Of a DNA stretch of 64,000 bases, positions 7,707 through 63,715 are shown one piece after another. This stretch comes from an uncultured Planctomycetia bacterium (GTDB lineage: Bacteria > Omnitrophota > Gorgyraeia > 1-14-0-20-64-10). Each line of letters begins with the position of its first letter. Position 1 is the stretch's first letter. The DNA lies in contig CAZQXN010000006.1 in the NCBI GenBank assembly GCA_964597545.1, forward strand, positions 13,695 through 77,694, in the 5' to 3' direction. The notes beneath the pieces are model-generated. The model was not told where the DNA came from, did not search any database, and worked only from the letters and a program-made list of their open reading frames with translations. Both the position numbers and the translations under genes were made by a program.

Positions 7707-7712
7707 AAGAAT

Positions 7713-10171: not shown

Positions 10172-10229
10172 TTTCTTTTCCAAGAGTTGTTTCCTGTTTG
10201 GTCATCGTGAATACAGCTGGAGGTCAACC

Positions 10230-10754: not shown

Positions 10755-10803
10755 GGTAAACGTCCCCTATCTTTTCTAGCTTGTTACCTGTCAGGTCTAA
10801 AGC

Positions 10804-13367: not shown

Positions 13368-13404
13368 GTCCTTCGACGTTGCTCAAGACAAGCGGAGTCG
13401 AACC

Positions 13405-30280: not shown

Positions 30281-30290
30281 GGCTTTTCTT

Positions 30291-36176: not shown

Positions 36177-36200
36177 GATTTAAAGAGGAATCCTTCGCCC

Positions 36201-45343: not shown

Positions 45344-45423
45344 AAATCGGTACCAGGTACCAAAAGCGAAGATCGGTACCAGGTACCAAGAGCAAAAATC
45401 GGTACCTGGTACCGTTAGTTTTT
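45344..45423. repeat. Three tandem ATCGGTACC-W-GGTACCAA palindromic units (about 26-bp period) forming a perfect 13-bp hairpin plus T-run between convergent genes
   Basis: GGTACCAGGTACC at 45349-61 and 45375-87. GGTACCTGGTACC at 45401-13; the A and T versions are exact reverse complements. Then GTTAGTTTTT. Confidence 0.75.
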
Positions 45424-45933
45424 CCCTGCCTGGAATCCGATCTGTTTGCGAGCCGGCGGCTTATGGGTTTCTTCCATGAGTTTTCTGATGGCGTCAAATA
45501 CTACCTTGAATTGGGTGTCGTATTTTTTCTCCAAAGCGGCCAGACGGCGGGCCAGTTCTTTGTTGCTGGCCAGCATGGAACGGAGCTTCACAAACGTTCG
45601 CATGATGGCAATGTTGACCTGGACAGCTCGCTTGCTGCGGAGCACACTGGAGAGCATAGCTACTCCCTGCTCCGTGAAAGCATAGGGTTTTGCTCGTCGA
45701 ATGCCACCCCAGCTTGAAGTCACAAATTGTGACTTCAAGATTGAAAACTCCTTCTTGTTCAGTTGAAACATGAAATCCTTAGGGAATCGCTCCTTATTGC
45801 GCTTGACGGCCTGTATTAGGATTTTGGGTATCACACCGTACATATCAGCCAGGTCAGGGCTAAGCATTACTTTGTGGCCTCGCAGGAGGTAGATCTGTCT
45901 CTCGATTCGCTCTGATGGGATAAGCTGGCTCAT
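45415..45933 (-). CDS. ORF6N-domain protein (phage-associated DNA-binding family)
   Basis: [54 protein letters not shown]...[28 protein letters not shown] matches the ORF6N domain. A TATAAT -10 lies on the minus strand at 45987-45992. Confidence 0.7.
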
Positions 45934-46236: not shown

Positions 46237-46827
46237 ATGAAGGTCAAGGGGATCATCAAGTACGAGTCTGAGCGGGATCCGGAGTTTTCGCGCTGGATCA
46301 CCGGTGTCATGGGCGCTGAGAATATCCAGCACTGCATTCAGTGCGGCATGTGCAGCGCCGCCTGCCCCCTTGCTCCCTATATGCAGCACACCCCCCGCCA
46401 GTTGATTCAGCTCGCCCGCGAGGGTTTCAAGGAAGAGGTCCTCAAAAGCTCCACCTTCTGGTTCTGCTCAAGCTGCTATGCCTGTGCGGTGGAGTGCCCC
46501 AAAGAGATCAAGGTGACAGAGGTGATGTATGCCTTGAAGCGCCGGGCGATGGAGGAGAAGATCCACCCCAAGCGCGCTTCCATTCCGGTGATGGCAAAGG
46601 AATTTGCCCGGATGGTCTACAAGCGGGGTCGCGTCACCGAGACGGAGTTGATGACCCTGTTGATGCTCAAGACCAACCCCCTCAGGTTCTTTAAGATGTC
46701 TCGGCTCGGCCGCAAGCTCATGAGGACCGGTCGCTTCTCCTTAAAGCGTGAGAAGATCCAAGCCCGCGGGCAACTCAAGAAGATGCTCGATTCCGCCCCC
46801 TCCTGCCGGAAAGAGGAAAAGTCATGA
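46237..46827 (+). CDS. hdrC: Heterodisulfide reductase subunit C
   Basis: CIQCGMCSAACP and CSSCYACAVECP. Confidence 0.8.
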   Translation: MKVKGIIKYESERDPEFSRWITGVMGAENIQHCIQCGMCSAACPLAPYMQHTPRQLIQLAREGFKEEVLKSSTFWFCSSCYACAVECPKEIKVTEVMYALKRRAMEEKIHPKRASIPVMAKEFARMVYKRGRVTETELMTLLMLKTNPLRFFKMSRLGRKLMRTGRFSLKREKIQARGQLKKMLDSAPSCRKEEKS

Positions 46828-47702
46828 AGTACCTCTATTACCCCGGCTGCTCTCTTAAGGGGACCGGCATGGCCTATGAGGAGTCGATTCTGGAGGTCTT
46901 CAAAATCCTTGGGGTGGAGATCGAGGAGATTAAGGATTGGAACTGCTGCGGTGCGACCGCCTACATGTCGGTGGATGATTCCCAGGCATTGATCTTGGCC
47001 AGCCGCAACTTTGCCATGGCTGAGGGCAGGGGGGAGGATGTGGTGGCTCCCTGCAGCGCTTGCTATCTCACCTTAAGCAAGGCAAACCGGAGATTCCAGG
47101 AGTCACCTCAGTGCCGAGAGAAGGTTGAGCATGCGCTGGAGGAGGCAGGCTTAAAGTATCAGGGCAAGCTCAAGATCCGCCATCCGTTAGATATCCTCTT
47201 TCATGACATCACCCCGCAGGCCATCGCTAAGCACGTGAAGAAGCCGCTCAAAGGTTTTAAGGTGGCCCCTTACTACGGCTGCCAGGTGGTGCGTCCTTAT
47301 GCAACCTTTGATGACCAGTTCCATCCGATGACCATGGACAAGATCTTGTCCGCCCTCGGAGCCGAGGTGGTGCCGTACTCCTTAAAGACCAAATGCTGCA
47401 GCGGTTCTCAAGGCGGTGCGATGCCTGAGGTGACCTATGAGCTGGTCCATGCCCTGCTCAGGGAGGCCAGGCGGGTGGGCGCCAATGCCATGGCTACGGT
47501 CTGTCCGCTCTGCCAGTTTAATCTGGAAGGTTTTCAGGATGAGATCCGGGAGCGGATCGAGGATGTCCGGCTGCCGGTGCTGTACCTGCCGCAGTTGATG
47601 GGCTTGGCCTTTGGTCTGGATGAGAAGAAGCTTGGTATTCAGAGGAATTTTAGCTCGATCCAATCGATCCTGGCCGCCCAGAAGGCAGAGGCCAAGGCAT
47701 GA
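46824..47702 (+). CDS. hdrB: Heterodisulfide reductase subunit B
   Basis: YYPGCSLKGT...WNCCGATAYM...CSACY and YYGCQVVRP...CCSGSQG...VCPLCQFNLE. Confidence 0.85.
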   Translation: MKYLYYPGCSLKGTGMAYEESILEVFKILGVEIEEIKDWNCCGATAYMSVDDSQALILASRNFAMAEGRGEDVVAPCSACYLTLSKANRRFQESPQCREKVEHALEEAGLKYQGKLKIRHPLDILFHDITPQAIAKHVKKPLKGFKVAPYYGCQVVRPYATFDDQFHPMTMDKILSALGAEVVPYSLKTKCCSGSQGGAMPEVTYELVHALLREARRVGANAMATVCPLCQFNLEGFQDEIRERIEDVRLPVLYLPQLMGLAFGLDEKKLGIQRNFSSIQSILAAQKAEAKA

Positions 47703-49717
47703 GCGCTGAAGGGGCAGTGCAGGGAACCGGCCAAGAGGATCTTCGGGTCGGCTTCTACGTCTGCCATTGCGGCGTCAATATCGCCTCGATGATTGACGTC
47801 AAGGCCGTGGCCGAGTTTGCTTCCAAGCTGCCGGGTGTGGTCCTCTCGCGAGAGTACAAATACATGTGCTCTGATCCGGGCCAGGAGTTGATCTCCCAGG
47901 ACATCCGAGACAACCGCCTAAACCGCATTGTGGTGGCTGCCTGCTCGCCGCTTCTGCATGAAGAGACCTTCCGCAAGGCGACTGCCAGCGGGGGCTTAAA
48001 CCCCTTCTTTTTTCACATGGTCAACATCCGGGAGCACGACGCCTGGGTCCATGAGGATCGGGCCTCTGCCACCGAGAAGGCAATCGACTTGGTCCGCGCT
48101 GCGATTGCGCGTGTCGCAGCACACAAGGCCCTTGAGAAGAAACAGGTGCCTGTCCACCCGGATGTCTTGGTCTTGGGCGGCGGCATTGCCGGCATCCAGG
48201 CGGCCTTGACGCTGGCCAATGCCGGCAAGAAAGTGACCTTGGTTGAGCGGGAAGCGACGATCGGCGGCCACATGGCGCAGTTTGACAAGACCTTCCCGAC
48301 CCTTGATTGCTCCGCCTGCATCCTGACCCCTAAGATGTCTGCGGTCAGATCCCACCCCAACATCACCCTTTGGACCTATTCCGAGGTGACCCAGGTCGAC
48401 GGTTTTGTGGGCAACTTCACCGTGACCGTCAAGCGCAAGCCCCGCTACATCAAGGAGGATCTTTGCGTGGGCTGCCTGGAGTGTGTGGAGGCGTGCGTCT
48501 ACAAGGTAGGGCGAACCCCGGATGAGTTCAACATGGGGCTCTCCAAGCGCAAGCCGGTTTACATGCCCTTTCCGCAGGCCACCCCTCAGGTGGTGTTGAT
48601 CGATCCTGAGAGCTGCATTCAGCTTAAATCCGGCAAGTGCAAGCAGACCTGTGTCGAGGCTTGCGGGGACCGCAATGCAGTGGATCTCAAGCAGCTCGAG
48701 GAGATCAAGACCGTTGAAGTCGGCACCATCATTGTGGCGACCGGGTTTAAGACCTTTGACCCCAAGCACACCCCCTATTACGGCTATGGGATTTACCCGG
48801 ATGTCTACACCGCCTTGGAGGTGGAGCGGCTGATCAACGCCTCCGGACCCACCGCGGGCGAGGTCGTGCTTAAGGACGGGCGCAAGCCTAAATCCATCGC
48901 CATCATCCACTGCGTGGGCTCCAGAGACAATTTGACCAATAAGTGGTGTTCCCGGGTCTGTTGCATGTACTCGATGAAGCTGGCGCATCTCATCAAGGAG
49001 AGGACCCAGGCCGAGGTGTACAACTTCTACATCGACATCCGCGCACCCGGCAAGGGATATGAAGAGTTCTACGACCGCCTGCTGGGCGAGGGGGTCCACT
49101 TCATCCGAGGCCGAGTGGCTGAGGTGACCGATGCGGTGATGCCAGGAGAGGAGGCCGGTAAGTTGATCGTCCGCGCGGAGGATACCTTGAGCGGTTTTAT
49201 GCGGCGGGTGCCTGCAGACATGGTGGTCTTGGCTACGGGCCTCGAGCCCAGAGACGACGCCCAGGATGTGCGCAGGCTCTTCAACATGACCTGCTCCACT
49301 GAGGGGTGGTTCCTGGAGCGGCATCCCAAGCTTGCCCCTGTGGAGACATTCACTGACGGCATCTTTATTGCCGGCGGCTGCCAGGGCCCCAAGGACATCC
49401 CGGATACCGTGGCCCAGGCCGGCGCTGCCGCTGCTCAAGCTCTGGCTCTTATTGATACCGGGCACGTGGAGTTAGAGCCCAACACCGCCTACATTGCTGA
49501 AGAGGACTGCTCAGGCTGCAAGTCCTGTATACCGCTGTGCCCCTATACGGCGATCTCCTATGTGGAGGAGAAGAAAAAGGCCGAGATTAACGAGGCGCTG
49601 TGCAAGGGCTGCGGAACCTGCGTGGCCTCTTGCCCCTCCGGCTCCATCCGGCAGAACCTGTTTGAGGACGAAGAGATTTATAAAGAGATTGAGGGGGTGC
49701 AGTCCCATGACAAGTGA
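47699..49717 (+). CDS. hdrA: Heterodisulfide reductase subunit A
   Basis: VGFYVCHCGVNIAS...VLVLGGGIAGIQAAL...FPTLDCSACILTP. Collinear and about 60% identical by eye to 33087..35048. Confidence 0.85.
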   Translation: MSAEGAVQGTGQEDLRVGFYVCHCGVNIASMIDVKAVAEFASKLPGVVLSREYKYMCSDPGQELISQDIRDNRLNRIVVAACSPLLHEETFRKATASGGLNPFFFHMVNIREHDAWVHEDRASATEKAIDLVRAAIARVAAHKALEKKQVPVHPDVLVLGGGIAGIQAALTLANAGKKVTLVEREATIGGHMAQFDKTFPTLDCSACILTPKMSAVRSHPNITLWTYSEVTQVDGFVGNFTVTVKRKPRYIKEDLCVGCLECVEACVYKVGRTPDEFNMGLSKRKPVYMPFPQATPQVVLIDPESCIQLKSGKCKQTCVEACGDRNAVDLKQLEEIKTVEVGTIIVATGFKTFDPKHTPYYGYGIYPDVYTALEVERLINASGPTAGEVVLKDGRKPKSIAIIHCVGSRDNLTNKWCSRVCCMYSMKLAHLIKERTQAEVYNFYIDIRAPGKGYEEFYDRLLGEGVHFIRGRVAEVTDAVMPGEEAGKLIVRAEDTLSGFMRRVPADMVVLATGLEPRDDAQDVRRLFNMTCSTEGWFLERHPKLAPVETFTDGIFIAGGCQGPKDIPDTVAQAGAAAAQALALIDTGHVELEPNTAYIAEEDCSGCKSCIPLCPYTAISYVEEKKKAEINEALCKGCGTCVASCPSGSIRQNLFEDEEIYKEIEGVQSHDK

Positions 49718-50192
49718 TTGGGAGCCGCGGATTGTGGCCTTCTTCTGTAACTGGTGCACCTATACCGCTGCGGATTTGGCAGGTGTTTCCCGCATGAAAT
49801 ATGCCTCCAATGTGCGGATCATTCGACTGATGTGCTCAGGCCGGGTGGATCCGCAGTTTGTGCTGGAGGCCTTTGCCAAAGGGGCTGACGGGGTCTTGAT
49901 CGGCGGCTGCCACCCCGGCGACTGCCATTACATCGAGGGCAATCACAAGGCGATGCGGCGGGTGCGCCTGATGAAGCGGTTGCTCAAGGATATGGGAATT
50001 GAGGAGGAGCGTTTCCGCTTGGAGTGGATCTCTGCTTCGGAGGGGGATAAGGTCAAATCGGTTATTAACGAGATGGTCGAGCAGCTTAAAGCATTGGGTC
50101 CCCTGGCGCTGCCCAAGCGTTTTGTCGACTGGGACAAGGAATGCGCTGAGATGGCCGCCGGGTCCGGACAGGAGCAAGCCCACCATGGGTGA
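49707..50192 (+). CDS. mvhD: MvhD (hydrogenase delta subunit)
   Basis: Start moved to the internal Met (MTSDWEPRIVAFFCNWCTYTAADLAG...), which overlaps the hdrA stop (ATGA). The ORF-track N-extension lies in a different frame, inside hdrA. Confidence 0.85.
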   Translation: MTSDWEPRIVAFFCNWCTYTAADLAGVSRMKYASNVRIIRLMCSGRVDPQFVLEAFAKGADGVLIGGCHPGDCHYIEGNHKAMRRVRLMKRLLKDMGIEEERFRLEWISASEGDKVKSVINEMVEQLKALGPLALPKRFVDWDKECAEMAAGSGQEQAHHG

Positions 50193-51171
50193 GAAGCCGA
50201 AGGTTGCCTTTTACTGGTGCGCCTCCTGCGGGGGATGCGAGGAGTCGATCGTAGATCTCGCCGAGGATCTGCTCAGAGTCACAGAGGCGGTTGATATTGT
50301 CTTTTGGCCGGTGGGGCTGGATTTTAAGCGTAAGGATGTGGAGGCGCTGCCGGACGGGGCGATCTTGGCCTGTCTCCTCAATGGCGCCATTCGGACCTCT
50401 GAGCAGGAGGAGATGGCCCGGTTGCTGCGCAGAAAGAGCCAGGTGATGGTTGCCTATGGCGCCTGCGCTCACATGGGGGGTATTCCGGGCCTTGCCAACC
50501 AGTTCAGCCGCGAGCAGCTCTTGAAGTACGTTTACGAAGAGGCCCCTTCGGTTGATAACCCCGACAAGACCCGTCCGATGCCTAAGTTTGAAGAAGCCGG
50601 CCGCACTGCAACCCTGCCTGTTTTCCGAAACATGGTGCGCTCATTGGACCAAGTGGTGGATGTGGAGTATTACCTGCCGGGTTGCCCGCCCACCCCAGGG
50701 CTTCTCAAGGAGGCAGTCTTTACACTGCTCTCCGGCAAGCTCCCTCCAAAGGGAACAGTCCTGGCCCCGGATATTGCCCTGTGTGATACCTGTCCTCGCA
50801 AGGAGTCCAAGCCCACAGATGTTAGCTTCACTGAGCTTAAGCGCCCGCACGTCTCTGAGATCGATCCGGAGGCTTGTTTGCTGGCCCAGGGGTTTGTCTG
50901 CATGGGTCCTGCCACTCGCGGTGGGTGTGAGGCCCTGTGCGTGAACGGCAACATGCCCTGCACCGGTTGTTTCGGCCCGACCTCCCGCGTGCGGGACCAG
51001 GGGGCCAAGATCCTCTCCTCCATCTCCGCCAATATCTCGGCGACCGAAGAAGAAGGGGCAGACAAGATTCTGTCGGGATTGCCGGATCCGGTGGGCACCT
51101 TTTACCGCTATGGGCTGGCCAAGTCTCTAATGAGGCGCAACCTGGCTGCCGGCCAGGAGAAGAAGGGATAA
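50185..51171 (+). CDS. mvhG: [NiFe] hydrogenase small subunit MvhG
   Basis: Start at MGEKPKVAFYWCASCGGCEES (internal Met). Collinear with 37865..38851. Confidence 0.8.
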   Translation: MGEKPKVAFYWCASCGGCEESIVDLAEDLLRVTEAVDIVFWPVGLDFKRKDVEALPDGAILACLLNGAIRTSEQEEMARLLRRKSQVMVAYGACAHMGGIPGLANQFSREQLLKYVYEEAPSVDNPDKTRPMPKFEEAGRTATLPVFRNMVRSLDQVVDVEYYLPGCPPTPGLLKEAVFTLLSGKLPPKGTVLAPDIALCDTCPRKESKPTDVSFTELKRPHVSEIDPEACLLAQGFVCMGPATRGGCEALCVNGNMPCTGCFGPTSRVRDQGAKILSSISANISATEEEGADKILSGLPDPVGTFYRYGLAKSLMRRNLAAGQEKKG

Positions 51172-51179: not shown

Positions 51180-52727
51180 ATGGACAAAGAAATCCAGAAG
51201 AACTGGGAGAGGGGCCGGGCCGGCGCAGATGAGAGTTATCTCAAGAAGCGGCGCGTAGTGATTGACCCGATCACCCGCCTGGAGGGGCACGGCAAGGTCG
51301 ACATTCATCTTAACGAGGAAGGGGATGTGGACCGGGCCTATTTCCAGATACCGGAGCTCAGAGGTTTTGAGGTCTTTAGTCTCGGCCGCCCGGCTGAGGA
51401 CATGCCGCAGATTACCAGCCGCATCTGCGGGGTCTGCCCCACCGCCCATCACATGGCTGCCACCAAGGCGCTGGATGATCTGTATCAGGTGGAGCCCACC
51501 CCGGCGGCCAAGAAGATCCGGGAACTTGTCTACAACACCTTCATGCTTGAGGATCACGCCCTCCATGTCTATATCCTGGGTGGGCCGGACTTCATTGTGG
51601 GACCCGATGCGCCGGCCGAGACCCGCAATGTCCTCGGCGTCATTGAGAAGGTGGGTGTGGAGGTGGGCAAGAGGGTCATCGCCACTCGGCGCCGCCTGCG
51701 GGAATTGATCACCCATTTGGGTGGCAAGGTGATCCACCCGGTTCTGGGGCTTCCAGGCGGAGTGGCCAAGGGGTTGACCCAAGAGGAGCTGCCGCACTTT
51801 CAGCAATTGGCCAAGGACGCGGTGGAATTTGCAGAGTTTACCCTGCAGGTTTTCCGGGACCTGGTCTTAAAGAACGACGCCTACGTCAAGCTCATCACCT
51901 CAGATCACTACACGCATAAGACTTACTACATGGGTTTGGTGGATGAGGCAAACAAGGTCAACTTCTATGACGGCAAGATTCGCGTGGTTGATCCGGAGGG
52001 GAAGGTCTTAACCGATTTTGCCCCGCAGCAGTACCTTGACCACGTCGCCGAGCATGTGGAGCCTTGGAGCTATGTCAAATTCTGCTACTTAAAATCCGTC
52101 GGCTGGCAGGGTTTTGCTGAAGGGCCGGAGAGCGGCATCTATGCGGTGGCCCCTCTGGCTCGGCTCAATGCCTCTGACGGTATGGCCACCCCTAAGGCCC
52201 AGAAGGCGTACGAGGAGTTTTATGCGATCTTGGGGGGCAAGCCGGTCCACCACACCCTGGCCAACCATTGGGCCCGGGTGGTGGAGATGGTCTATGCGGC
52301 CGAGCGGATCGAAGAGCTGCTCGACGACCCGGAGATTACCAGCACCGATCTTCGCGTCATCCCCACCAAGACCCCCAAGGTTGGCATGGGGGTGGTGGAG
52401 GCGCCCCGAGGCACCCTGTTCCATCACTTTGAAACCGATGAAAAGGGTTTGCTTACCAAGGTGAACCTCATTGTTGCCACCCAGAACAACGCAGGCCGCA
52501 TCGCCATGAGCGTGGAGAAGGCCGCCAAGGGCTTGATCCGCAAGGGTAAGGTTTCTGACGGCTTGCTGAACATGGTGGAGATGGCATTCCGCGCTTACGA
52601 CCCCTGTCACGCTTGCGCCACCCACTCGCTTCCCGGCCAGATGCCCCTGATTTTGCAGGTGCGTGATGCGTCGGGCCGCGTTGTTGAGGAGGTCAGCCGA
52701 TGCGTGACCCCAAACCCCGCACCTTAA
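51180..52727 (+). CDS. mvhA: [NiFe] hydrogenase large subunit MvhA
   Basis: Start at MDKEIQ... (internal Met). RLEGHG...RICGVCPTAHH ... DPCHACATHS. Confidence 0.85.
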   Translation: MDKEIQKNWERGRAGADESYLKKRRVVIDPITRLEGHGKVDIHLNEEGDVDRAYFQIPELRGFEVFSLGRPAEDMPQITSRICGVCPTAHHMAATKALDDLYQVEPTPAAKKIRELVYNTFMLEDHALHVYILGGPDFIVGPDAPAETRNVLGVIEKVGVEVGKRVIATRRRLRELITHLGGKVIHPVLGLPGGVAKGLTQEELPHFQQLAKDAVEFAEFTLQVFRDLVLKNDAYVKLITSDHYTHKTYYMGLVDEANKVNFYDGKIRVVDPEGKVLTDFAPQQYLDHVAEHVEPWSYVKFCYLKSVGWQGFAEGPESGIYAVAPLARLNASDGMATPKAQKAYEEFYAILGGKPVHHTLANHWARVVEMVYAAERIEELLDDPEITSTDLRVIPTKTPKVGMGVVEAPRGTLFHHFETDEKGLLTKVNLIVATQNNAGRIAMSVEKAAKGLIRKGKVSDGLLNMVEMAFRAYDPCHACATHSLPGQMPLILQVRDASGRVVEEVSRCVTPNPAP

Positions 52728-53194
52728 TCCTCGCTTTCGGCAACGACATTCAGGGTGACGATGCGGTGGGGCTCGTTGCCGCACGGATGTTGAAGCAGGA
52801 GCTTCCCGAGGTGGAGGTGATGGAGGTTCCGGGAGCCGGCATGGATCTCTTAGAGCTGTGCGAGGGTCACACGCACGCCCTTTTGCTGGATGCGGTGGTG
52901 ACCGCACAGCACCCCCCAGGCACTGTTTTGCACTTCAGCCGCGAGGATTTCCAGAAGGTGGTGGCCCCCTCCCTGCATTACGCGGGGCTCCCTGAGATCT
53001 TCGGTATCTCTGAGAAGCTCAAGCTGCCTTTCCCCAAGACCTTTCGCATCTTGGCCATTGAGATTGAAAAGTCCGATGATTTCCGAGAGGGCTTAGGTCC
53101 AGAGATTCAAGCGGCTTTGCCCCGCTATGTGGATGAGGCTCGAGCGATCTTGAAGAGTTGGAACACAGAGGCAGCATGCACGAATACTCATTGA
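52700..53194 (+). CDS. Hydrogenase maturation endopeptidase (HycI/HybD family)
   Basis: LILAFGNDIQGDDAVGLVAARMLKQ...GMDLLEL...LLDAV is the typical large-subunit C-terminal processing protease. Confidence 0.75.
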   Translation: MRDPKPRTLILAFGNDIQGDDAVGLVAARMLKQELPEVEVMEVPGAGMDLLELCEGHTHALLLDAVVTAQHPPGTVLHFSREDFQKVVAPSLHYAGLPEIFGISEKLKLPFPKTFRILAIEIEKSDDFREGLGPEIQAALPRYVDEARAILKSWNTEAACTNTH

Positions 53195-55926
53195 TGCAGG
53201 GGGTGATTGAGGCGATCCTGGCCGACCTCAAGCGGCAGGGGATTGCTGAGGCTGCGCGGATTGAGGAGGTGGCGCTGAGCATCGGGGCTTTAAGCATTCA
53301 CTCCGCAGAATCCTGCGAACAGGCCTTTGAGATTGAAACCCAAGGAACACCGTTGGAAGGGGCGCGCCTGAACCTGACGGTGGTCCCCATCACCCTTCGC
53401 TGTCCCGCCTGTGGGTTTAAGGGCAGCTGCCCCTCAGGCAAATGCGATCCGCACCAATCGGTGCCTTACTTGGAGTGCCCCTCCTGTTCCGGAATGGCTC
53501 ATGTGGAAGGGGGCAGGGGGGTGGAATCGATCCATCTGGTGACCGACGGCGAGACCCCCGAGATCCTCTCCGGCGCGGCCCCCTCTCTTCGTCTGCGCGT
53601 AACGGTGCGCGGTGCGGTACAGGGTGTGGGATTTCGTCCCTTTATCTATCGCCTTGCCACTGAATTGGGTTTAGCCGGTGAGGTGACCAATACCCCCCAG
53701 GGTGTTTTGATCGAGGTCGAAGGTCCTCCGGAGCCGCTCAAGGCCTTTTTGTTAAGGATTGAGCGGGAGAAGCCCCCTCACGCATCGATCCAAAGCCTGG
53801 AATCGACCTATCTGGATCCCGCGGGATTTGCCTCCTTTGAGATTCGACCCAGCAAAACTCAAGGCTTAAAACGCGCGCTGGTGATGCCAGACATCGCCAC
53901 CTGCCCGGAGTGCTTAAAGGAACTCAATGATCCCAAGGACCGGCGCTACCAATACCCCTTTATCAACTGTACCCACTGCGGGCCCCGCTTTTCTCTGATT
54001 ACAAATCTTCCGTACGACCGGCCCAATACCACCATGGCACGCTTTACCTTGTGTGATGCTTGCCAGGTTGAGTACGACGATCCCCAAAGCCGCCGTTTCC
54101 ATGCCCAGCCCAATGCGTGTCCGGAGTGCGGCCCGAGCCTGGCTCTTTGGGACCCCCAGGGAAAAGCGTTGGCCGAGCGCGATGAAGCGCTGCGCTTAAG
54201 CGTCCAGGCCATTCGAGAGGGGAAGATCGTCGCAGTCAAGGGCCTTGGGGGGTTTCATCTGGTTGTGGATGCGGCCAACCAGCAGGCGGTCTTGCGTCTG
54301 CGCGAACGCAAGCACCGGGAAGAAAAACCCTTTGCCTTGATGGTTCCGACCTTGGAGAGCATCCGGGAGCACTGCGATTGCTCAGCCCTCGAGGAGCGCC
54401 TCTTGCGCTCACCCGAGGCACCCATTGTTTTGCTGCGGCGCAAGAATGAAGTTCGTCAAGGGGTGATTGCGGGGTCAGTCGCTCCTGACAACCCTAACCT
54501 CGGGGTGATGCTCCCCTATACGCCGCTGCATCATCTCTTGCTGGCTGAGTTGGGTGCACCCATTGTGGCAACCAGCGGCAACTTGTCAGATGAACCGATC
54601 TGCACCGATGAACAGGAGGCGCTGGAACGCCTGAGCGGCATCGCAGATCTCTTCCTGGTCCACGATCGTCCGATTGCCCGCCATGTTGATGATTCGATTG
54701 TCCGTGTGGTGATGAACCGGGAGCTGGTGCTGCGCCGCGCCCGCGGTTTTGCCCCCCTTCCGGTGACCTTGAAGACTCCTGTTGAGAATTGCATGGCCGT
54801 GGGGGGGCATCTCAAGAACACTGTGGCCGTTGCCTTTGAGAATCAAACGGTGCTCAGTCAGCACATCGGCGATTTGGAGACTGCCGAGGCCTCCAAGGTT
54901 TTTCAGGAGACCTTCGGAGATTTTCAGAAATTTTACGAGGTGGATCCTCGGACAGTTGCTTGCGATGCGCACCCTGACTACCGCTCCACGTGCTTTGCCA
55001 AGGGCTTGGGGCTGCCGACGGTGCAGGTGCAGCACCATGAGGCGCATGTGCGAGCCTGCATGGCTGAGAATGAGTTGGACGGCACAGTGCTCGGCGCTGC
55101 CTGGGATGGAACCGGTTATGGATCAGACAGCACCATCTGGGGCGGCGAGTTCCTGCTGGTGGATGGGTCCTCGTGCCGGCGCGTTGCCCACCTGCGCCCC
55201 TTTGACTTGCCCGGCGGCGAACAGGCGGTTAAGGAGCCCGGGCGCATTGCGCTGGGTTTGCTGGAGGCGTTGGGGGGCGAGAAGCTTGCCGGGTATGATG
55301 CCTTAGCGCCGGTGAAATCCTTTAACGCGCGTGAACGCGAGATTATTTTGCGCATGCTTAAGCAGAAGATCAACACCCCAGTTACCTCAAGCGCCGGTCG
55401 GCTCTTTGATGCGGTTGCTTCCCTGGTGGGCTTGCGTCAGATCTGTCGGTTTGAGGCGCAGGCTGCGATGGAGCTTGAATATGCGGCTGAGGGGGTCCGG
55501 ACCGATCAAGCCTATTTTATGGCAGCGGCGCCCTGTGCGTTGGCGCATGCTAAGTCAGAGCCGCACCTCATGATAGATTGGGAGCCGATGATCTTGGAAC
55601 TCCTCAAGGATCTGTGCGCCGGCACACCGGTCAGCGAAATCTCAGCAAAATTCCACAATGGATTGGCCCAAACCATTGCGGCTGTCGCAGGGCAGGTGGG
55701 TGCAGCGCGGGTGGTCCTTGCCGGCGGCTGTTTTCAGAATCGCATTCTAACCGAACAGGCAGTCAACCGCTTGCAGGCGGCGGGATTTAAACCTTATTGG
55801 CACCAGAGGGTGCCGCCCAATGACGGCGGCATCGCCCTTGGGCAGATTGCTGCGGCAGCCCGCATATTTGAACATGCGCCCAAGAAGGAGGAGGCATGTG
55901 CCTCGGTATCCCCGGTAAAATCCTAG
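53176..55926 (+). CDS. hypF: HypA-HypF fusion: N-terminal HypA (Ni-metallochaperone) domain fused to HypF carbamoyltransferase
   Basis: N-terminus MHEYSLMQGVIEAIL...CPACG...CPSC is HypA (MHE Ni site plus Zn CxxC pairs). This is continuous in frame with the HypF acylphosphatase (VQGVGFRPF), two Zn fingers (CPECL...CTHCGPRF; CDACQ...CPECGP), YrdC and Kae1-like domains. Confidence 0.7.
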   Translation: MHEYSLMQGVIEAILADLKRQGIAEAARIEEVALSIGALSIHSAESCEQAFEIETQGTPLEGARLNLTVVPITLRCPACGFKGSCPSGKCDPHQSVPYLECPSCSGMAHVEGGRGVESIHLVTDGETPEILSGAAPSLRLRVTVRGAVQGVGFRPFIYRLATELGLAGEVTNTPQGVLIEVEGPPEPLKAFLLRIEREKPPHASIQSLESTYLDPAGFASFEIRPSKTQGLKRALVMPDIATCPECLKELNDPKDRRYQYPFINCTHCGPRFSLITNLPYDRPNTTMARFTLCDACQVEYDDPQSRRFHAQPNACPECGPSLALWDPQGKALAERDEALRLSVQAIREGKIVAVKGLGGFHLVVDAANQQAVLRLRERKHREEKPFALMVPTLESIREHCDCSALEERLLRSPEAPIVLLRRKNEVRQGVIAGSVAPDNPNLGVMLPYTPLHHLLLAELGAPIVATSGNLSDEPICTDEQEALERLSGIADLFLVHDRPIARHVDDSIVRVVMNRELVLRRARGFAPLPVTLKTPVENCMAVGGHLKNTVAVAFENQTVLSQHIGDLETAEASKVFQETFGDFQKFYEVDPRTVACDAHPDYRSTCFAKGLGLPTVQVQHHEAHVRACMAENELDGTVLGAAWDGTGYGSDSTIWGGEFLLVDGSSCRRVAHLRPFDLPGGEQAVKEPGRIALGLLEALGGEKLAGYDALAPVKSFNAREREIILRMLKQKINTPVTSSAGRLFDAVASLVGLRQICRFEAQAAMELEYAAEGVRTDQAYFMAAAPCALAHAKSEPHLMIDWEPMILELLKDLCAGTPVSEISAKFHNGLAQTIAAVAGQVGAARVVLAGGCFQNRILTEQAVNRLQAAGFKPYWHQRVPPNDGGIALGQIAAAARIFEHAPKKEEACASVSPVKS

Positions 55927-56150
55927 AGATTGATACCCAAGGCCCCTTGAAACGCCAGGGCAAGGCCAGCTTCGGCGGCATTGTTAAAGAGGTCAATCTC
56001 TCCTATGTTCCCGAGGCCGAGGTGGGCCAATACGTCATCGTGCACGTTGGCTTTGCCATCAGCGTCATCAATGAGGCCGAGGCCCAGGAGACCCTCTCTT
56101 ATCTTAAAGAGATGGGGGAACTGGCTGAGCTCGAGGGCACGTCGGAATGA
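55896..56150 (+). CDS. hypC: Hydrogenase maturation factor HypC
   Basis: [12 protein letters not shown]... canonical N-terminus. Confidence 0.85.
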
Positions 56151-57256
56151 AATTCATCGACGAGTATCGCGATGTTGAATTGGCCCAACAGTATGCCCGG
56201 GCCATTACGCGCCTGACCACAAAGCCCTGGACCCTCATGGAGGTCTGCGGAGGGCAGACGCACGCGATCGTGAAATTCGGAATTGACGAGCTGCTGCCTC
56301 GGCAGATCACCTTGGTCCATGGGCCGGGGTGCCCGGTTTGTGTGACCCCATTGGAGTTGATCGACAAGGGCATTGCCATTGCATCCACTCCTAAGACAAT
56401 CTTCTGCTCCTTCGGGGACATGCTCCGTGTGCCCGGAAGCAAGCAGGACCTCTTTGCGGTTAAGGCTGCCGGGGGTGACATCCGCGTGGTCTACTCTCCC
56501 CTGGATGCGGTGAAAATCGCTCAGCAGAACCCAGAGCGTGAGGTGGTCTTCTTTGCCGTGGGCTTTGAGACCACGGCACCTGCCAACGCCATGGCGGTTT
56601 ACCAAGCCCGTCAGCTTAAACTTGCGAACTTTTCGATCTTAGTCTCCCACGCCTTGGTTCCTCCGGCCATGGAGGCGGTCCTCTCCTCCAAGCAGGCGCG
56701 CGTGCAAGGTTTCTTGGCGGCCGGCCATGTCTGCACCGTGATGGGGTATACCGAGTACGAGCCGATTGCGGAAAAACACCAGGTACCCATTGTGGTTACC
56801 GGTTTTGAGCCGGTCGATATCCTCCAGGGGGTCTTGATGTGCGTTAAGCAGTTGGAGGGGGGCAGAGCAGAGGTTGAGAACCAGTATGCTCGCTCAGTCA
56901 AGCGACAAGGAAACGCACCGGCGCTAAAACTCATCCGAGAGGTTTTCAAAGTTGTGCCCCGCAAGTGGCGCGGAATCGGAGAAATCCCTCAAAGCGGCCT
57001 GGGGCTGACCTCAAGCTACAGCGCTTTTGATGCTGAGCAGCGTTTTGGTGTAGCCGCCGAAAGCGTTGAGGAATCCAGTGAGTGTGTGAGCGGCCTTATC
57101 CTTCAGGGGCTGAGGAAACCTGACTCCTGCCCTGCTTTTGGAACGCGATGCACCCCGGAGCATCCCCTGGGGGCAACGATGGTATCTTCCGAAGGGGCCT
57201 GTGCGGCCTACTACCGATTCCGGTGGGTAAAGCCGCAAGAGGCCCACCGTGCCTGA
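56147..57256 (+). CDS. hypD: Hydrogenase maturation factor HypD
   Basis: ...[11 protein letters not shown]...[10 protein letters not shown]...FETT...GFEP.. motifs. Confidence 0.85.
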
Positions 57257-58304
57257 GACCCATCCCCCCACATTCTCCTGCCCAGCGCCTAAGACCGATC
57301 GCTCCACAGTTCAATTGGCGCACGGCGGCGGCGGTACTTTGATGCGCTCCTTGATCGAAACACTCTTTAAGCCGGCTTTCAGTAACCCAGAGCTAGATCG
57401 TTTGCATGACGGAGCAGTCCTTGAGCTGGGCGGGACCCGTTTTGCTTTTACAACCGATTCCTATGTGGTGCACCCCCTCTTCTTTTCTGGCGGCGATATC
57501 GGCAAGCTGGCGGTCTGCGGCACCCTCAATGACTTGGCGATGTGCGGCGCACGCCCAATAGCTTTGAGTGTAGGCTTCATTTTAGAAGAGGGGCTTCCCA
57601 TGGAGACCCTCAAGCGTGTCGTGGAATCCATGCGGCTCTCAGCAGAGGCGGCCGGGGTCAAGCTGGTCACCGGGGACACCAAGGTGGTGGACAAGGGCAA
57701 GGGGGACGGCCTCTTTATCAACACCGCAGGGATTGGCACCTTGGAGTACAAGGGCACCATCGCACCCGAGAAGATCCAAACCGGCGATGCCATTCTCTTA
57801 AGCGGCGACATCGGCCGCCATGGCATGGCGATCATGGCTGCTCGTGAGGGTTTAAGCTTTGAGGGGGCGATTGAGAGCGACTGTGCGGACCTATCAAGCT
57901 TAATCCAGGAGCTGATCCGCTCTGAAATTGGGATCCACTGTCTGCGGGACCTGACCCGCGGGGGTCTTGCGAGTGCCCTGGTTGAGATTGCCGAGGCTGC
58001 CAAGCGGGATTTGGCCGTTGAAGAACGAGCCATTTCAGTGCGCCAAGAGGTGCAGGGGGCTTGTGAGATCTTGGGACTCGACCCCCTCTATGCTGCCAAT
58101 GAAGGCAGATTCATTGCTTTTGTACCTGAGTCTTGCGCCAAGCAAGCGCTCGCTGTGCTTACGGCACACCCCCTGGGTCAGGGGGCGTCGCAGATTGGCG
58201 CAGTACAAAAGAGCAATCAGGGCCTCGTCACCCTAAAAACCGCCATAGGCGCCAGTCGGCTTGTTGATATGTTAAGCGGCGAGCAGCTCCCGCGAATCTG
58301 CTAA
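57249..58304 (+). CDS. hypE: Hydrogenase maturation factor HypE (carbamoyl dehydratase)
   Basis: AIR-synthase-like fold. LAHGGGG...TDSYVV...GDTKVV...C-terminal PRIC. Confidence 0.85.
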
Positions 58305-58438: not shown

Positions 58439-61400
58439 GTGATGCATATGGTTAAGAGGGGGTTTCTACCCACAACGTTAGCCCTTTTCTTAAGCCTCTC
58501 CCTTGGCTTGTTTGTTGTGAGCGCGACCTTCGGGGAGGCCAAAGAGGAAAGCTGCGCCTTTACGCTGCGCACCCTAGAGACCGCTGAGTTCGCATCCGGC
58601 TTAGAGGAACTGGAGATGCGCCTAACCGAAGATTGGTCTGCAGCCGGTCTGGGGGAGGGCGCAGAGACCGTCCTAGGCATTACCGATACCGTAGCAACTG
58701 TCCAGACACTCCTTCGTGGTGGTACCGTTTTTCTTGGCAGCGTAGGTTTTGAAACAAAAGCAGGCCTGGAGGAATGGACCACCTTGGACTGGAAGAACCC
58801 TGGCTCGATTCGCCATTTTGTTTTAGCAGTTGCAGGCAACAGCCCGAGAACCCCACTGGTCATTCAGGCGATACCTCGCCAATCCGAAAACAAATTTGAT
58901 GTCTTGGTGCATCCAGCGCAGAGCCCTCCACCTGGGTTGCCTGTGCCAGATGCAGCTCAGACGCTCAACCTGGTCTCCCGCCATGATCAGGTCCGTACGG
59001 TTGAGATTCACGGACAGACTCGGCAGGAATTTCCAGCGAATGATTTTTCTCTACTCGAACCTGCTGAGCGCATTGAAATCGCCCGACGACTGAACCGGCT
59101 CTCAGGTGACAGAGGGGTTTGGGTTCGTTTTGTGCTGATTGCGGTTGAGATGGGCAGGCCCGCCCTTAAGGTGATCGCCATGCCTGTTCTGGCCGTTGAC
59201 CCTTCGACCCCTGATGTCGCGCAGGTTGAGTCTGGCCTCGAGGAAACACCCGCTATTCTCAGAAAGGCTCGTGAGGTCATTCAGAAACAAGGGGTACTGT
59301 GGCTTTTTGGCCGTTTCTTAGAGACGAGCGTGGATGACGGAACCCGTGCCCGTTGGGCGCAGCAAGGCATTCACTTCGGGGATAATCGTGCAGGGTACAG
59401 GCAGCTTTTGGGCGTTAACATGCCGGTTGCCGGCCTTGGAACTCCCCATGAGCGCCCCGGACATTTCATTAGGATTGAGAGGTTGGGATATGTACCCGAG
59501 GCAATCGCGGACAGGCAAGACCAGACAGGCGAACGCGATAAGCTCCTCATCACCTATGCCCCTGGCACAAAGGTGGTCCACCGCGCGGAGAAGAGAACAC
59601 GAGAGGTTCCCTCTAAGGCCTTTTGGGGGTTGGCAGGGCGGCTCGGGCGCAAGCAGCAGGAACCCTATGAGACGCAGGTTCAGGAACGGGTAGTTGACAC
59701 GAGCCGGCTTGCCTCCATGGGGGATGTTGCTCGGCCATACGAGGCGCTTACAGGGAGGCTCGATTCCAGTATCGCCTCGCAGAACGCCGTGAGCATCCAA
59801 TACATAGGTTGGACTGCCGGCCCGAGAGGCCAGTATTATTTCATGGTTGTTCTTCCAGAAGAAGACATGGGCGCTGAGCTGGCGGAATGGCTGCGCACCC
59901 ACCCTGAACAGGCACCTGTTCTCATTGAGCAGTTCTATCCTGATTTCTCCGACCTCCGCATTGCTCCTCCGCAGAATGTTGTGGATGTGTATCGGCATAC
60001 TTCTGATGAAGCGCTGAGGTGGTACCAACAGCACCATACCTGGGACGATCCCTTTAATGTATTCCTTGAGACAGTAAGCAGCAACGATGGAGACTTTCGC
60101 GATGAGCGTGGCGTGATAGCCCGGCAGGCCATGGAGCAGTTGTTCCACAAGGAGAGCGTCCCCATTGCTTCGGAGCCAACAGGCACGGGCCTGGAGGAGA
60201 GCGCGTTGCAAGGATTCCTGGTTCCTGCGGCTGTCGGGCCGATGGTGTCGAAGATTATTCCGGTTCCCCAAAGAGGCATCTTGTACGGCATTGAACTGGG
60301 CCATGAAATCCGAGAGGCCGCTTTATTCCCGACCGCCGCACCGGACGAGGCAATCTATAGCCCCACCCGAGGAACGTTGATCTCTCTGGACGCCCATACC
60401 CTGAAGCGCAATAGGGAAGGCCCCAAGGTGGCCCAGGCGCTTGTTTCTGCAGATGGAGAGAATCTCTATGCTGTGGAGGGGTCCACCGGAGTGATGTTGC
60501 GCTTAGATCCGAATACCCTGCAGATGGCGGCCAGAGGCGAACATCCTGCCGAGATGGCTGCCCTTTCTCCGGACGGCAACTCCCTGATCATTGTTGATAA
60601 GCAGACAGGGCAACTGGTTCGATTGGATCTAGAAGATCATCTAAGAGAGGTTGCCCGGAGCGAGGCGGCTGTCGTGCTCGACCCAGATGCTTTTCTGGTG
60701 ACCGATGAGGGGGTATATGCCTTTGATCGGCAGAGGGGCCGGCTTCTTCGTTTTGACCTGAATAACCTCAGTGTTGCGGCGCGGTTTGGTGGGAACTTGA
60801 TTGAGTTTGCAGTGGATCAGGAGTGCAACGCCCTTTTCGCTATTGAAGCGAATGGGTGGGAGCGGCAGATTGTCCGTTTCGACACCGAGGGCGGCGCAGA
60901 GACAGCGCGCACCCCAGAGGGCACTCGGTACGGCACTCCGGTGCTGGGGGCGGACCCCGATGCGCTCTACGCGACCGACATAGACAGAAACGTTGTTGTC
61001 CGGTTTGACGCTGTTGCGTTGACCCGGGAGGCGGCCGGCTTGCCGGAGGAGCTGATGGATGAATATTATCCCTCAACGGTGCCCGGCGTCCTCTTCGGGA
61101 TAAAGCATTCCGCCGCGGAAGGGGAGGGCGTTCCCCTGCTTGCCGATTCGCAGGGGCTTCGGGTGCAGGGGTGGGGACCCACCATCAGCTTGCAATGGCT
61201 GAGAAAGCCCGTTGCGTACGACAACTATTTTTATGCGGCCAATCCAAATTGGGATTTGATGCGCCTGAAGCTCCTCCCTTTTGAAGAGGTTCTGGATTTC
61301 TTTGTTGAGCGGTCCGATTCACTCGGCCTCAATTTTCTTGCTCCTCTCTTGGAACGCGATTTGCGGCAGGCAGCTTCCGATGAGGCGTCATTTCAGGGCC

Positions 61401-63715
61401 GCTACGGAGTTTCGTCCGAAACTGCACTCGGGGAACTTCAGAGGCTGGTTTCGGCACAATTCGAGGAGGGCGACTTTCTGGAGATTGAGCGGCAGGCGGC
61501 AGCGCGGGATATCCTGCTGCGCCTCTCCGATACCGCCGGTTTGGAGGAGGATTGGTTTGAGGTTCATCAATACAGAGACGGCGACAAGACGGCGCTTCTG
61601 GAGGCGTTTGAGAAGCTGAAGGACGCCGCCGTTACATTGGATCAAGAGGAGATAGGACTTATCAAGAGACTCCGCGAAGTCGCCGGTGAGGCTGCAAAAC
61701 GGGTGAAGCGGAAGCAGGACCAAGAATGGCCGGTGGGTTATGTGCCCTCTCCCCTGCAGGATACGGCGCGAGTGTTCAGATTTGCCGAGCTTCAGCCAGG
61801 AGATGAGGTTTTGGATCTGGGCGGTGCAGACGGAAGAGTCGCCTTTCTTGCCGCCTCAGATCTTTTCAGGGCTCACGCTGTCAGTCCTGAGATAAACGAA
61901 TATTTGCTCGATAAAGCCAGAGCCGGCGAGAAGGCTCTGGTGGATGCGCGGTTGATTCCTCAAGGCAGCGTGAAGCTGATGAGAAAGAATTTCATGTTCC
62001 CCAGGTGGAGTGGTTTTAAGCTCATCCACTACTTTTCATTTGGATCCGATATACCTGCCGCAGAGATCTCCGGGAAAGTGCTTGAAGAGCTGGTTGTGGG
62101 CGGGAAGTTTGTTGTGAGGGGCTCCAGGGCAGAGGACCTGCATGCGGGAAAAACCCTTTATGAGGATTTCAGGAGGTTGATGCGCTCAGAGGATTTTGAG
62201 TTTGCGCGGTTGCCGCAATACAGGTCCTGGGTCTTTACCCGCGTTTCAGACAGCGAAAAGCGCGCCGCCGGCCAGGAGGAGGGGGTGGAGCAGCTGGTGG
62301 TGATTGTCCACGCAAGTAAAGCGGCAGGTTTTGATCGCATTGCCAAGATTACCCGCCAAGTCAGGCCGGATATCGAAGTGACACTTCTCGAGGTGCTCAA
62401 CGATGGTAGTTATCGTTTCGATGACCAACCCATGGATTACGATACCTTGGTTGACGAGGTCGACATGCGGCCGAAAACAGCAGGTGTCATGCTGGGTTGG
62501 GACAGCCTTGCCAGCGATTTTGCTCTGCAGCCCGATACCGGGGTAGCGAACCTTCAAATTATCTTCGCAATTGGCCCCAACGCAGATCTTCACCGCAGCC
62601 GGAAGGTCGAGTTGTATCCGGTGATCCACGCCTCACTTGCTACCAAAGACCATACGATTCGGAAGAAGCTCGAGAGGTTTTTGGGCGTTGGCTTGGAGGA
62701 GGAGCAGGCCGATCCGAACCGAGTTCGAGAGGTGATCCGGCGATTAGGGGAGATGTCCGGGAAGATTTCTGTTGCCAAGATTTGGGAACAAACAGAACCG
62801 GAGGAGTTTAAGCTAACGCAGGTTCGTTTTGCTGGTTTTTTCAAGCTTTGGACCATTCATGTGACTGAGGGTCTCGCTGTGTCGAGGAAACCCTCTGGTA
62901 GTTACTCTATGGACCCATCCGGCCAGCGATTTGTCACGGTCGAGGAGGTGCCGGCTGATACTCTGCAAACGTTTGTTGGTGATGAGACGTTGGTTTACCG
63001 TGAAAGCGCTTCCAGTTTGGATGAACCATCAGAGGAAAGCTCTCTGCCTCTTTTGAAGCAGGCTGAAATGGCCTTCTTCAGACGGCTGCTTCAGCGGCAG
63101 TTGTTAGATGCGGTTACTCGCCCCGGAAGAGACCGCCAAGCCCGTCAGACTCTAGAAGCTCTCACCGGCCTGAAGATGGAGGCAGTTGGGAAGTTGCTCA
63201 TAGCTGAAGAAGGAGTGTTCCCTTCAGAATCGACAGATTCTGGCCTGGAGGAAACCACTGTGCGTGAGGTCACCCCGATGGAATTCACCCGCCTCAGCGG
63301 CCAACCCACTCCCCCAGACACCCGCGCGGTCTTGGTGTTCTCCGGCCTGGAGGAGCAGACCCGCGTCCAACTCTTTGCCCAGGCCCCCCTCTTTGCCCCA
63401 TTCGCCCAATGGGCCCAAGACCACTTAGCAGAGCTCCCAGAGGGCCTCTCCCTCTTTGTCCTGCCCCTCCCCGACAACCCATCCCAGCTCCAAGCCCCGG
63501 GCCTGGTCCTTAAAGATGCCCTGCTGAATCTGCCCTTTCCTGCAGACCGCTCCACCCTGCCCATCCTTGAGCGGTACCGCTCCGATCCCCTCCCTGCATT
63601 AGCCCCTGTACTCTACTATGCCTTCACCGGCAAGACCGGCCAGATCAAGGCCTTGATCGGCATGACCTCCTGGATCGACGCCAACGGCAAGCGCATCTTC
63701 GCCTTCTTCGTGTAA
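58439..63715 (+). CDS. Giant secreted modular protein C (1758 aa): signal peptide, YVTN-type beta-propeller repeats, class-I SAM-methyltransferase-like module, GLEE/GQEE-punctuated
   Basis: Signal peptide (LALFLSLSLGLFVVSATFGEA). YVTN-like repeats (LYAVEGSTGVMLRLDPNTL..., LIIVDKQTGQLVRLD...). VLDLGGADGRVAFLAA (MTase motif I-like). Nine GLEE/GQEE boundaries. C-terminus ...IFAFFV. Confidence 0.65.
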   Translation: MMHMVKRGFLPTTLALFLSLSLGLFVVSATFGEAKEESCAFTLRTLETAEFASGLEELEMRLTEDWSAAGLGEGAETVLGITDTVATVQTLLRGGTVFLGSVGFETKAGLEEWTTLDWKNPGSIRHFVLAVAGNSPRTPLVIQAIPRQSENKFDVLVHPAQSPPPGLPVPDAAQTLNLVSRHDQVRTVEIHGQTRQEFPANDFSLLEPAERIEIARRLNRLSGDRGVWVRFVLIAVEMGRPALKVIAMPVLAVDPSTPDVAQVESGLEETPAILRKAREVIQKQGVLWLFGRFLETSVDDGTRARWAQQGIHFGDNRAGYRQLLGVNMPVAGLGTPHERPGHFIRIERLGYVPEAIADRQDQTGERDKLLITYAPGTKVVHRAEKRTREVPSKAFWGLAGRLGRKQQEPYETQVQERVVDTSRLASMGDVARPYEALTGRLDSSIASQNAVSIQYIGWTAGPRGQYYFMVVLPEEDMGAELAEWLRTHPEQAPVLIEQFYPDFSDLRIAPPQNVVDVYRHTSDEALRWYQQHHTWDDPFNVFLETVSSNDGDFRDERGVIARQAMEQLFHKESVPIASEPTGTGLEESALQGFLVPAAVGPMVSKIIPVPQRGILYGIELGHEIREAALFPTAAPDEAIYSPTRGTLISLDAHTLKRNREGPKVAQALVSADGENLYAVEGSTGVMLRLDPNTLQMAARGEHPAEMAALSPDGNSLIIVDKQTGQLVRLDLEDHLREVARSEAAVVLDPDAFLVTDEGVYAFDRQRGRLLRFDLNNLSVAARFGGNLIEFAVDQECNALFAIEANGWERQIVRFDTEGGAETARTPEGTRYGTPVLGADPDALYATDIDRNVVVRFDAVALTREAAGLPEELMDEYYPSTVPGVLFGIKHSAAEGEGVPLLADSQGLRVQGWGPTISLQWLRKPVAYDNYFYAANPNWDLMRLKLLPFEEVLDFFVERSDSLGLNFLAPLLERDLRQAASDEASFQGRYGVSSETALGELQRLVSAQFEEGDFLEIERQAAARDILLRLSDTAGLEEDWFEVHQYRDGDKTALLEAFEKLKDAAVTLDQEEIGLIKRLREVAGEAAKRVKRKQDQEWPVGYVPSPLQDTARVFRFAELQPGDEVLDLGGADGRVAFLAASDLFRAHAVSPEINEYLLDKARAGEKALVDARLIPQGSVKLMRKNFMFPRWSGFKLIHYFSFGSDIPAAEISGKVLEELVVGGKFVVRGSRAEDLHAGKTLYEDFRRLMRSEDFEFARLPQYRSWVFTRVSDSEKRAAGQEEGVEQLVVIVHASKAAGFDRIAKITRQVRPDIEVTLLEVLNDGSYRFDDQPMDYDTLVDEVDMRPKTAGVMLGWDSLASDFALQPDTGVANLQIIFAIGPNADLHRSRKVELYPVIHASLATKDHTIRKKLERFLGVGLEEEQADPNRVREVIRRLGEMSGKISVAKIWEQTEPEEFKLTQVRFAGFFKLWTIHVTEGLAVSRKPSGSYSMDPSGQRFVTVEEVPADTLQTFVGDETLVYRESASSLDEPSEESSLPLLKQAEMAFFRRLLQRQLLDAVTRPGRDRQARQTLEALTGLKMEAVGKLLIAEEGVFPSESTDSGLEETTVREVTPMEFTRLSGQPTPPDTRAVLVFSGLEEQTRVQLFAQAPLFAPFAQWAQDHLAELPEGLSLFVLPLPDNPSQLQAPGLVLKDALLNLPFPADRSTLPILERYRSDPLPALAPVLYYAFTGKTGQIKALIGMTSWIDANGKRIFAFFV

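Follow-up and report, generated by a model that had tools for sequence, protein, structure and literature searches.

The stretch of DNA analysed here, called the window (64,000 nucleotides, nt; GCA_964597545.1, contig CAZQXN010000006.1, positions 13,695-77,694 of the forward strand), carries at 53176-55926 (+) an open reading frame (ORF) in which the [NiFe]-hydrogenase maturation proteins HypA and HypF are joined (called hypA::F; all positions below are those of the window). Maturation of [NiFe] hydrogenases is usually described as two branches, the assembly of Fe(CN)2CO by HypC, HypD, HypE and HypF, followed by nickel insertion by HypA, HypB and SlyD. An earlier note on this DNA had claimed that one polypeptide begins with MHEYSL, contains the CxxC...CxxC site of HypA and continues without a stop into the complete HypF domain set. 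This was borne out, since the ORF is uninterrupted over 916 amino acids (aa), and Pfam and TIGR00143 profiles matched its parts (Table 1). Although the ORF could be extended upstream to a TTG at 53158, the ATG at 53176 was preferred, as it provides the canonical MHE start of HypA and has GAGG 5-9 nt upstream. HypA and HypF are encoded as one 916-residue protein, by a natural gene fusion.

The HypF half matched TIGR00143, the NCBIfam equivalog model for HypF, with 835.5 bits (cut-off 466.1), residues 142-894 of the protein corresponding to positions 1-740 of the 741 in the profile. Five HypF Pfam models scored above threshold in the canonical order, namely acylphosphatase, the two-stretch zf-HYPF, YrdC-like and the Kae1-like pair, and identity to ordinary HypFs across many phyla was 60-65%. 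The partner HypE, which would accept the carbamoyl group from HypF on its C-terminal cysteine, is encoded downstream and has the C-terminus PRIC. No in-frame ATG, GTG or TTG was present between residues 123 and 143, where unfused HypFs begin, in either the window or the relative described below (L001). The only candidate internal starts were GTG116 and GTG122, which lie within the last strands of HypA with a G-rich sequence resembling a Shine-Dalgarno (SD) site upstream. As HypF has no start codon of its own, it could be made only as part of the fusion or from these GTGs inside HypA. The tryptic peptide predicted to span the HypA/HypF junction is GVESIHLVTDGETPEILSGAAPSLR.

Residues 1-116 matched PF01155 (HypA) with 74.2 bits (gathering score 28.9, E = 1e-20), and at the level of sequence membership of the HypA family holds. 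We aligned the HypA part with its 12 closest homologues, all of them stand-alone proteins of 123-135 aa with 35-54% identity (alignment A1), and found H2, E3 and the four zinc cysteines in two CxxC pairs (C76, C79, C101 and C104) to be invariant in 13 of 13 sequences. An AlphaFold2 model of residues 1-155 had a predicted local distance difference test score (pLDDT) of about 90 over residues 1-126, which fell below 50 from residue 128. When this model was compared with the PDB using Foldseek, the 14 best matches were all HypA (E down to 8e-8, template modelling score 0.5-0.81), that of Thermococcus kodakarensis being the best, and a PDB sequence search with the HypA part matched HypA entries only. 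Both the profile and the predicted fold thus align the N-terminal 125 residues or so with HypA. The stand-alone homologues terminate 2-6 residues past an IEL strand (IHLV in the window protein), and these end points place the end of HypA near residue 125, the linker at 126-137 and the start of HypF at L138. Sequence and model together indicate that residues 1-125 are a complete HypA, followed by a flexible linker that is predicted to be disordered.

The subfamily to which this HypA belongs (A1, and the stand-alone HypAs at loci L086-L104) is characterized by an MHEYSLMQ start, a GGRGVExIEL end and an insertion of about 21 residues between the CxxC pairs with a conserved Asp-Pro-His. The His of this motif might take the part that His98 of the T. 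kodakarensis protein has in the nickel site of HypAB. On the metagenome contigs L101 and L104 (about 10000-11700), a QueE-like radical-SAM gene and queC directly follow the gene for a stand-alone HypA of this subfamily; in the window, queC and a radical-SAM gene are found together at 12624-14250, 40 kb from hypA::F.

The nearest relative of the fusion in a collection of 5.8 billion protein clusters was P0001 (86% aa identity), encoded on a 2.6-kb Joint Genome Institute (JGI) metagenome contig (L001). The public gene call for P0001 (L001 116-2530) begins at a Met matching M107 of the window protein, inside HypA, and the contig is cut upstream. Read in the frame of this gene call but starting with the first base of the contig, L001 encodes VIPITLRCPACGFKGSCPSDKCDPHQSVPYLECPRCSGMAHVE, in which the HypA zinc site runs directly into HypF. 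The two DNAs were colinear, with zero insertions or deletions (indels) from the G-rich run across the linker into the start of HypF, while 327 of 842 codons differed, and synonymous divergence (dS) was about 0.3-1.0. A stop or frameshift between the HypA and HypF parts was looked for and none was seen, in the window or through the junction of this independent assembly. Over residues 69-125 of HypA we counted 10 synonymous and 3 non-synonymous codon differences, a ratio of non-synonymous to synonymous divergence (dN/dS, Nei-Gojobori) of 0.11; the HypF domains gave 0.08-0.19, and the linker was the most relaxed segment, at 0.32. Two diverged genomes therefore carry the fused frame, and purifying selection acts on the HypA part as it does on HypF.

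The earlier note had called a covalent fusion of the two proteins unexpected and had proposed a search for others. L001 was the only relative in which both parts shared a frame. PF01155 was absent from all of the 120 best HypF clusters in the cluster collection, and the HypA-like clusters matched by residues 1-140 were without exception 135 aa or shorter (42 of 42), none being fused. With a junction-spanning query (residues 1-225) against 1.84 billion representatives, the best 150 matches covered HypA or acylphosphatase and never both; one protein alone reached E = 1e-30 in this search. No hypF ORF with HypA in frame was found at 80 loci of species-representative genomes, and at 22 metagenome loci every related HypA stood alone. 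Clustering at 50% identity can conceal a fusion beneath an unfused representative, as was the case for P0001. A full-text literature search returned no report that HypA and HypF are fused or interact. The fusion appears not to have been described before and is uncommon, so that the claim of unexpectedness stands, qualified by the mundane origin considered below (a compact operon, and hypA next to hypF elsewhere).

Three groups of candidates for further fusions were rejected. L013, L019, L027 and L060, whose matches extended over residues 1-324 of the query, contain adjacent genes in different frames; L086, L097, L100 and L104, with matches reaching residues 145-162, are stand-alone HypAs with gapped alignments; and the two-stretch matches in the representative search were HypF fragments or HypA with a long insertion. 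The HypA-HypF fusion is thus rare, and is limited so far to one small lineage, probably related to Omnitrophota, that comprises the window organism and its 86%-identical relative. The RNase PH encoded in the window was 70-74% identical to Candidatus Omnitrophica proteins; a protein encoded on two JGI contigs, which are syntenic with the window over 4-19 kb and one of which shares the sample of L001, was 95% identical to it. Neither this RNase PH nor the fusion protein of the window is listed in the public gene index.

The fused gene lies in a co-directional array in the order hdrC-hdrB-hdrA-mvhD-small subunit-large subunit-protease-hypA::F-hypC-hypD-hypE (Table 1). Neighbouring genes overlap by 4-31 nt, with the single exception of an 8-nt gap between the genes for the small and large subunits. 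The overlap of 19 nt with the upstream protease gene described in the earlier note was found as stated; its naming of that gene as hycI-like was correct as to a protease and not as to HycI specifically, the best matches being a generic maturation protease or HyaD/HybD-like proteins.

Table 1. Position of the fused gene, of its parts and of the operon genes in the window
Feature	Position	Strand	Features and basis
hypA::hypF fused ORF	53176..55926	+	single ORF, 916 aa; HypA and all HypF domains; same frame in L001
HypA domain, aa 1-125	53176..53550	+	M1-H2-E3; zinc site C76/C79/C101/C104; Pfam PF01155
Linker, aa 126-137 (ETPEILSGAAPS)	53551..53586	+	homologues end; low pLDDT; relaxed dN/dS
HypF acylphosphatase, aa 138-225	53587..53850	+	PF00708 at 141-223; TIGR00143 begins at 142
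HypF zinc fingers, two CxxC-x18-CxxC (C243/246/265/268; C293/296/315/318)	53899..54150	+	PF07503, two stretches; Cys read in translation
HypF YrdC-like, aa 344-521	54205..54738	+	PF01300 (Sua5/YrdC), E 3e-49
HypF Kae1-like, aa 537-890, HHEAH and PPNDGG motifs	54784..55845	+	PF17788 (HypF_C, 537-631), PF22521 (HypF_C_2, 640-890)
hdrC	46237-46827	+	Fer4_8
hdrB	46824-47702	+	CCG
hdrA	47699-49717	+	Pyr_redox_2 and Fer4; HdrA2 model 850 bits, below its cut-off
mvhD-like	49707-50192	+	FlpD
[NiFe] small subunit	50185-51171	+	Oxidored_q6
[NiFe] large subunit	51180-52727	+	NiFeSe_Hases; RICGVCPTAHH (L1), DPCHACATH (L2), 33-aa C-terminal extension
Hydrogenase maturation endopeptidase	52700..53194	+	PF01750, TIGR00072 83 bits; 19-nt overlap with hypA::F
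hypC (starts MC...)	55896..56150	+	PF01455, TIGR00074; 31-nt overlap with hypF
hypD	56147..57256	+	TIGR00075, 498 bits
hypE (ends PRIC)	57249..58304	+	TIGR02124, 458 bits

The client enzyme resembles Group 3c (Mvh/Vhu-type, Hdr-linked) [NiFe] hydrogenases in its L1 and L2 motifs, its C-terminal extension, which the protease would cleave, and its MvhD and HdrABC neighbours, an assignment made by motifs and neighbours. The best NCBIfam match of the large subunit was VhuA, with 400 bits, which is below the archaeal cut-off of 800. Within 29408-40307 a second, paralogous VhuA/MvhA-like [NiFe] hydrogenase is encoded, its small subunit at 37865-38851 and its large subunit, which carries DPCLACATH and a 26-aa extension, at 38844-40307. 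It is preceded by genes for an HdrB-like protein, the three subunits of a 2-oxoacid:ferredoxin oxidoreductase, an HdrA2-like protein, a ferredoxin and a fumarate-reductase flavoprotein resembling TfrA, and neither a protease gene nor hyp genes accompany this cluster.

Directly 3' of hypE lies an ORF of 1758 aa (58439-63715, +) with no Pfam or NCBIfam match, and giant ORFs were also present at either side of the cluster of this second hydrogenase, which comes first in the window (22721-28720, +, 1999 aa; 40449-45326, +, 1625 aa, the latter with WD40 repeats by Pfam). Just upstream of the hdr-mvh-hyp operon is a gene for an ORF6N/Rha-like regulator (45415-45933, -). Elsewhere in the window we noted an ORF resembling HprK-related kinases, with a GDSGSGKT P-loop and a score below the cut-off (6633-7607, -), and a LAGLIDADG-like ORF (7713-8459, -).

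Comparable loci suggest how such a fusion could have arisen. At 80 genome loci the gene directly upstream of hypF was hypB in 21 cases, hypC in 12, a protease gene in 4 and hypA in 3. In L013, from a Nitrospirae metagenome-assembled genome (MAG), protease, hypA and hypF are separate genes with a 4-nt overlap, and in L027 and L060, from deltaproteobacterial MAGs, hypA is followed by a gap and then hypF. The order of hypA and hypF at these three loci is that of the window; unlike in the window, however, hypA and hypF there differ in frame or lie 180-250 nt apart, and hypA has a stop and hypF a start. The alphaproteobacterial MAG locus L019 contains a short HypA-like ORF (2830-3096; MHEASLMK...) without the CxxC zinc domain, between the protease gene and hypF. 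At L005 a stand-alone relative of the window HypA ends a group-3 hydrogenase operon directly after the protease, with a 23-nt overlap, so that the position of hypA straight after the maturation protease is the same in both. In an Omnitrophota MAG (L111) the series hypF-hypC...hypD is preceded by neither hypA nor hypB.

A further ORF in which HypF is extended at its N-terminus was found in L108, a contig from JGI metagenome 3300035099 (6105-8921, P0091). This ORF of 938 aa carries a protease-like domain in frame with a full HypF and is followed by hypC-hypD-hypE. Its N-terminal 160 residues or so resemble hydrogenase maturation endopeptidases (LVVGYGNELRRDDGAG) and matched the window protease by BLASTP with E = 1e-5. 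The added domain is similar to HyaD/HycI-type endopeptidases (GNELRRDDGAG) and is not HypA; it is known from one contig only. The N-terminus of HypF appears to tolerate extensions, and L108 appears to be a case in which a different upstream gene became joined to it independently.

Taken together, the tight overlapping operon, the adjacency of hypA and hypF elsewhere and L108 point to the loss of the hypA stop and the hypF start at a gene junction. In the setting of an operon whose neighbouring genes, mostly overlapping, would be translationally coupled, a hydrogenase-protease-hypA module would have ended with hypA, and a hypFCDE module would have begun with hypF. The boundary between the upstream hypA and the downstream hypF would then have been lost in a lineage-specific manner, the exact mutational event being inferred. 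Alternatively, deletion of an intervening hypB from a hypA-hypB-hypF order may have fused the genes and removed hypB in one event. That order is indeed common (14 of 80 loci); however, relatives of this HypA subfamily lack an adjacent hypB anyway, and the 12-residue linker is too short to discriminate between the two routes.

We consider it probable that hypA::F specifies a real bifunctional HypA-HypF maturase, translated as one chain and limited to this lineage, which arose by loss of the gene boundary and whose halves keep their classical jobs. The Ni(II) ligands of HypA are the N-terminal amine, His2 and Glu3 of the MHE motif, and a residue inserted before His2 disturbs the site (reviewed in PMC7055735). 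Since the free amine of Met1 is a ligand, HypA must be the N-terminal partner. The HypA domain would bind nickel through this amine and the MHE motif and deliver it to the large subunit, and the HypF part would convert carbamoyl phosphate into a carbamoyl group on HypE, the source of the CN ligands. As both halves keep their diagnostic residues, and as HypC, HypD, HypE and a client large subunit are encoded alongside, the halves, joined by a flexible linker of about 12 residues, may work independently as they do in separate proteins. The fusion would mainly fix 1:1 co-expression, and a kinetic gain from co-localisation is possible.

Several points weigh against this reading. On residues 1-117 the NCBIfam HypA equivalog models scored below their cut-offs (TIGR00100, 61.4 against 88.1; NF001976, 61.9 against 146), so that strict equivalog status is not certified by these scores. 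The first 68 codons of the relative lie off contig L001, and conservation over the full length is seen in one sequence only. The fusion is known so far as a DNA sequence and its predicted translation. The linker is short, and a HypF appendage of about 100 kDa may be difficult to reconcile with the docking of HypA on the large subunit as seen in the HyhL-HypA crystal complex. Finally, internal initiation at GTG116 or GTG122, or proteolytic separation, is possible.

The tether may instead be adaptive, holding the nickel-insertion module to the module for CN synthesis so that a single super-complex of HypF-HypE-HypCD and HypA works on one apo-large subunit; the fusion would then serve as a 'Rosetta stone' for a contact that separate HypA and HypF proteins elsewhere also make. 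Retention of the fusion under purifying selection in two diverged genomes, and the grouping of the maturation genes and hydrogenase in a single coupled operon, are consistent with such coupling. However, two essential halves would each be kept by purifying selection in any case, which is no sign of selection for the tether; constraint is lowest in the linker; and the confinement of the fusion to one small lineage, with its absence from the 120 + 42 + 80 + 22 related sequences and loci and from the representative search, as well as the silence of the literature on any such fusion or interaction, led us to regard adaptive coupling of this kind as unlikely.

We judged it quite improbable that the fusion is merely genetic and that the halves are separated in the cell, either by internal initiation at GTG116 or GTG122 coupled to termination or drop-off, or by proteolysis of the linker. 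The GTGs are in frame and have the G-rich, SD-like sequence upstream, and a linker predicted to be disordered could be open to cleavage. No stop codon closes a separate HypA, however, so that HypA could be made only within the long chain; the GTGs fall within the last HypA beta-strands and would be conserved for that reason anyway; and no cleavage motif is known.

The lack of hypB in the window, also reported in the earlier note, was confirmed. Six-frame scans of the 64 kb detected neither an ENVGN motif nor a Walker-A ORF of the GTPase or Mrp/MinD type, and none of the sizeable ORFs in the window matched the CobW/HypB family in Pfam; the identical motif scan detected hypB in 39 of 107 fetched loci. 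An adjacent hypB is also lacking at the stand-alone HypA relatives of this subfamily and at an Omnitrophota hypF cluster. Since hyp genes are often scattered and relatives in the subfamily also lack an adjacent hypB, its absence from 64 kb is uninformative and is not evidence for a HypB-free pathway. That the tether is functional and HypA here operates without a dedicated HypB nucleoside triphosphatase, nickel release being gated by the ATP/carbamoyl-phosphate cycle of HypF or by a recruited HypF-HypE-HypCD complex, is very doubtful; if true, the insertion of Fe(CN)2CO and of nickel into the nascent large subunit would fall to a single, physically coupled machine.

It is barely credible that two separate genes were falsely fused through a frameshift in sequencing or assembly, or through chimeric joining: the homopolymeric G-rich run at 53512-53524 (GGGGGCAGGGGGG) is indel-prone, but it codes for a GGRG motif conserved in all stand-alone homologues, the HypA frame runs at least 10 residues beyond it exactly as in those homologues, and the independent contig from a different organism is colinear across the junction without indels. 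The artefact reading is largely refuted, and the fusion is not a sequencing artefact.

If a bifunctional maturase is indeed selectively maintained, as we favour, the two branches of maturation can be joined covalently without loss of function, and the fusion offers a natural construct with which contact between them in vivo could be probed. It is also an annotation trap, as pipelines would name the protein 'HypF' and report hypA as missing, and the internal Met called as the start of P0001 did hide the HypA part.

In comparison with known systems, the N-terminal part shares with the HypA/HybF family (PF01155; 3A43, 5YXY and 5AUN of T. kodakarensis, 2KDX and 6G81 of Helicobacter pylori) the MHE N-terminus, the two CxxC pairs and, by prediction, the two-domain fold of an alpha/beta nickel domain and a zinc domain. 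Stand-alone HypAs are about 115-135 aa long; the window HypA instead continues at its C-terminus into HypF, and hypB is not adjacent. Structures of HypE-HypF have been described (Shomura & Higuchi, 2012, as cited in PMC6022934). As in HypF proteins described by TIGR00143, the remainder of the window protein contains the same four-domain set, and its gene is followed by hypC-hypD-hypE. Unlike ordinary HypF, it has an N-terminal extension of 137 residues, made up of HypA and the linker, and lacks a start codon of its own. The finding is thus an uncommon domain architecture of well-understood parts, rather than a new system.

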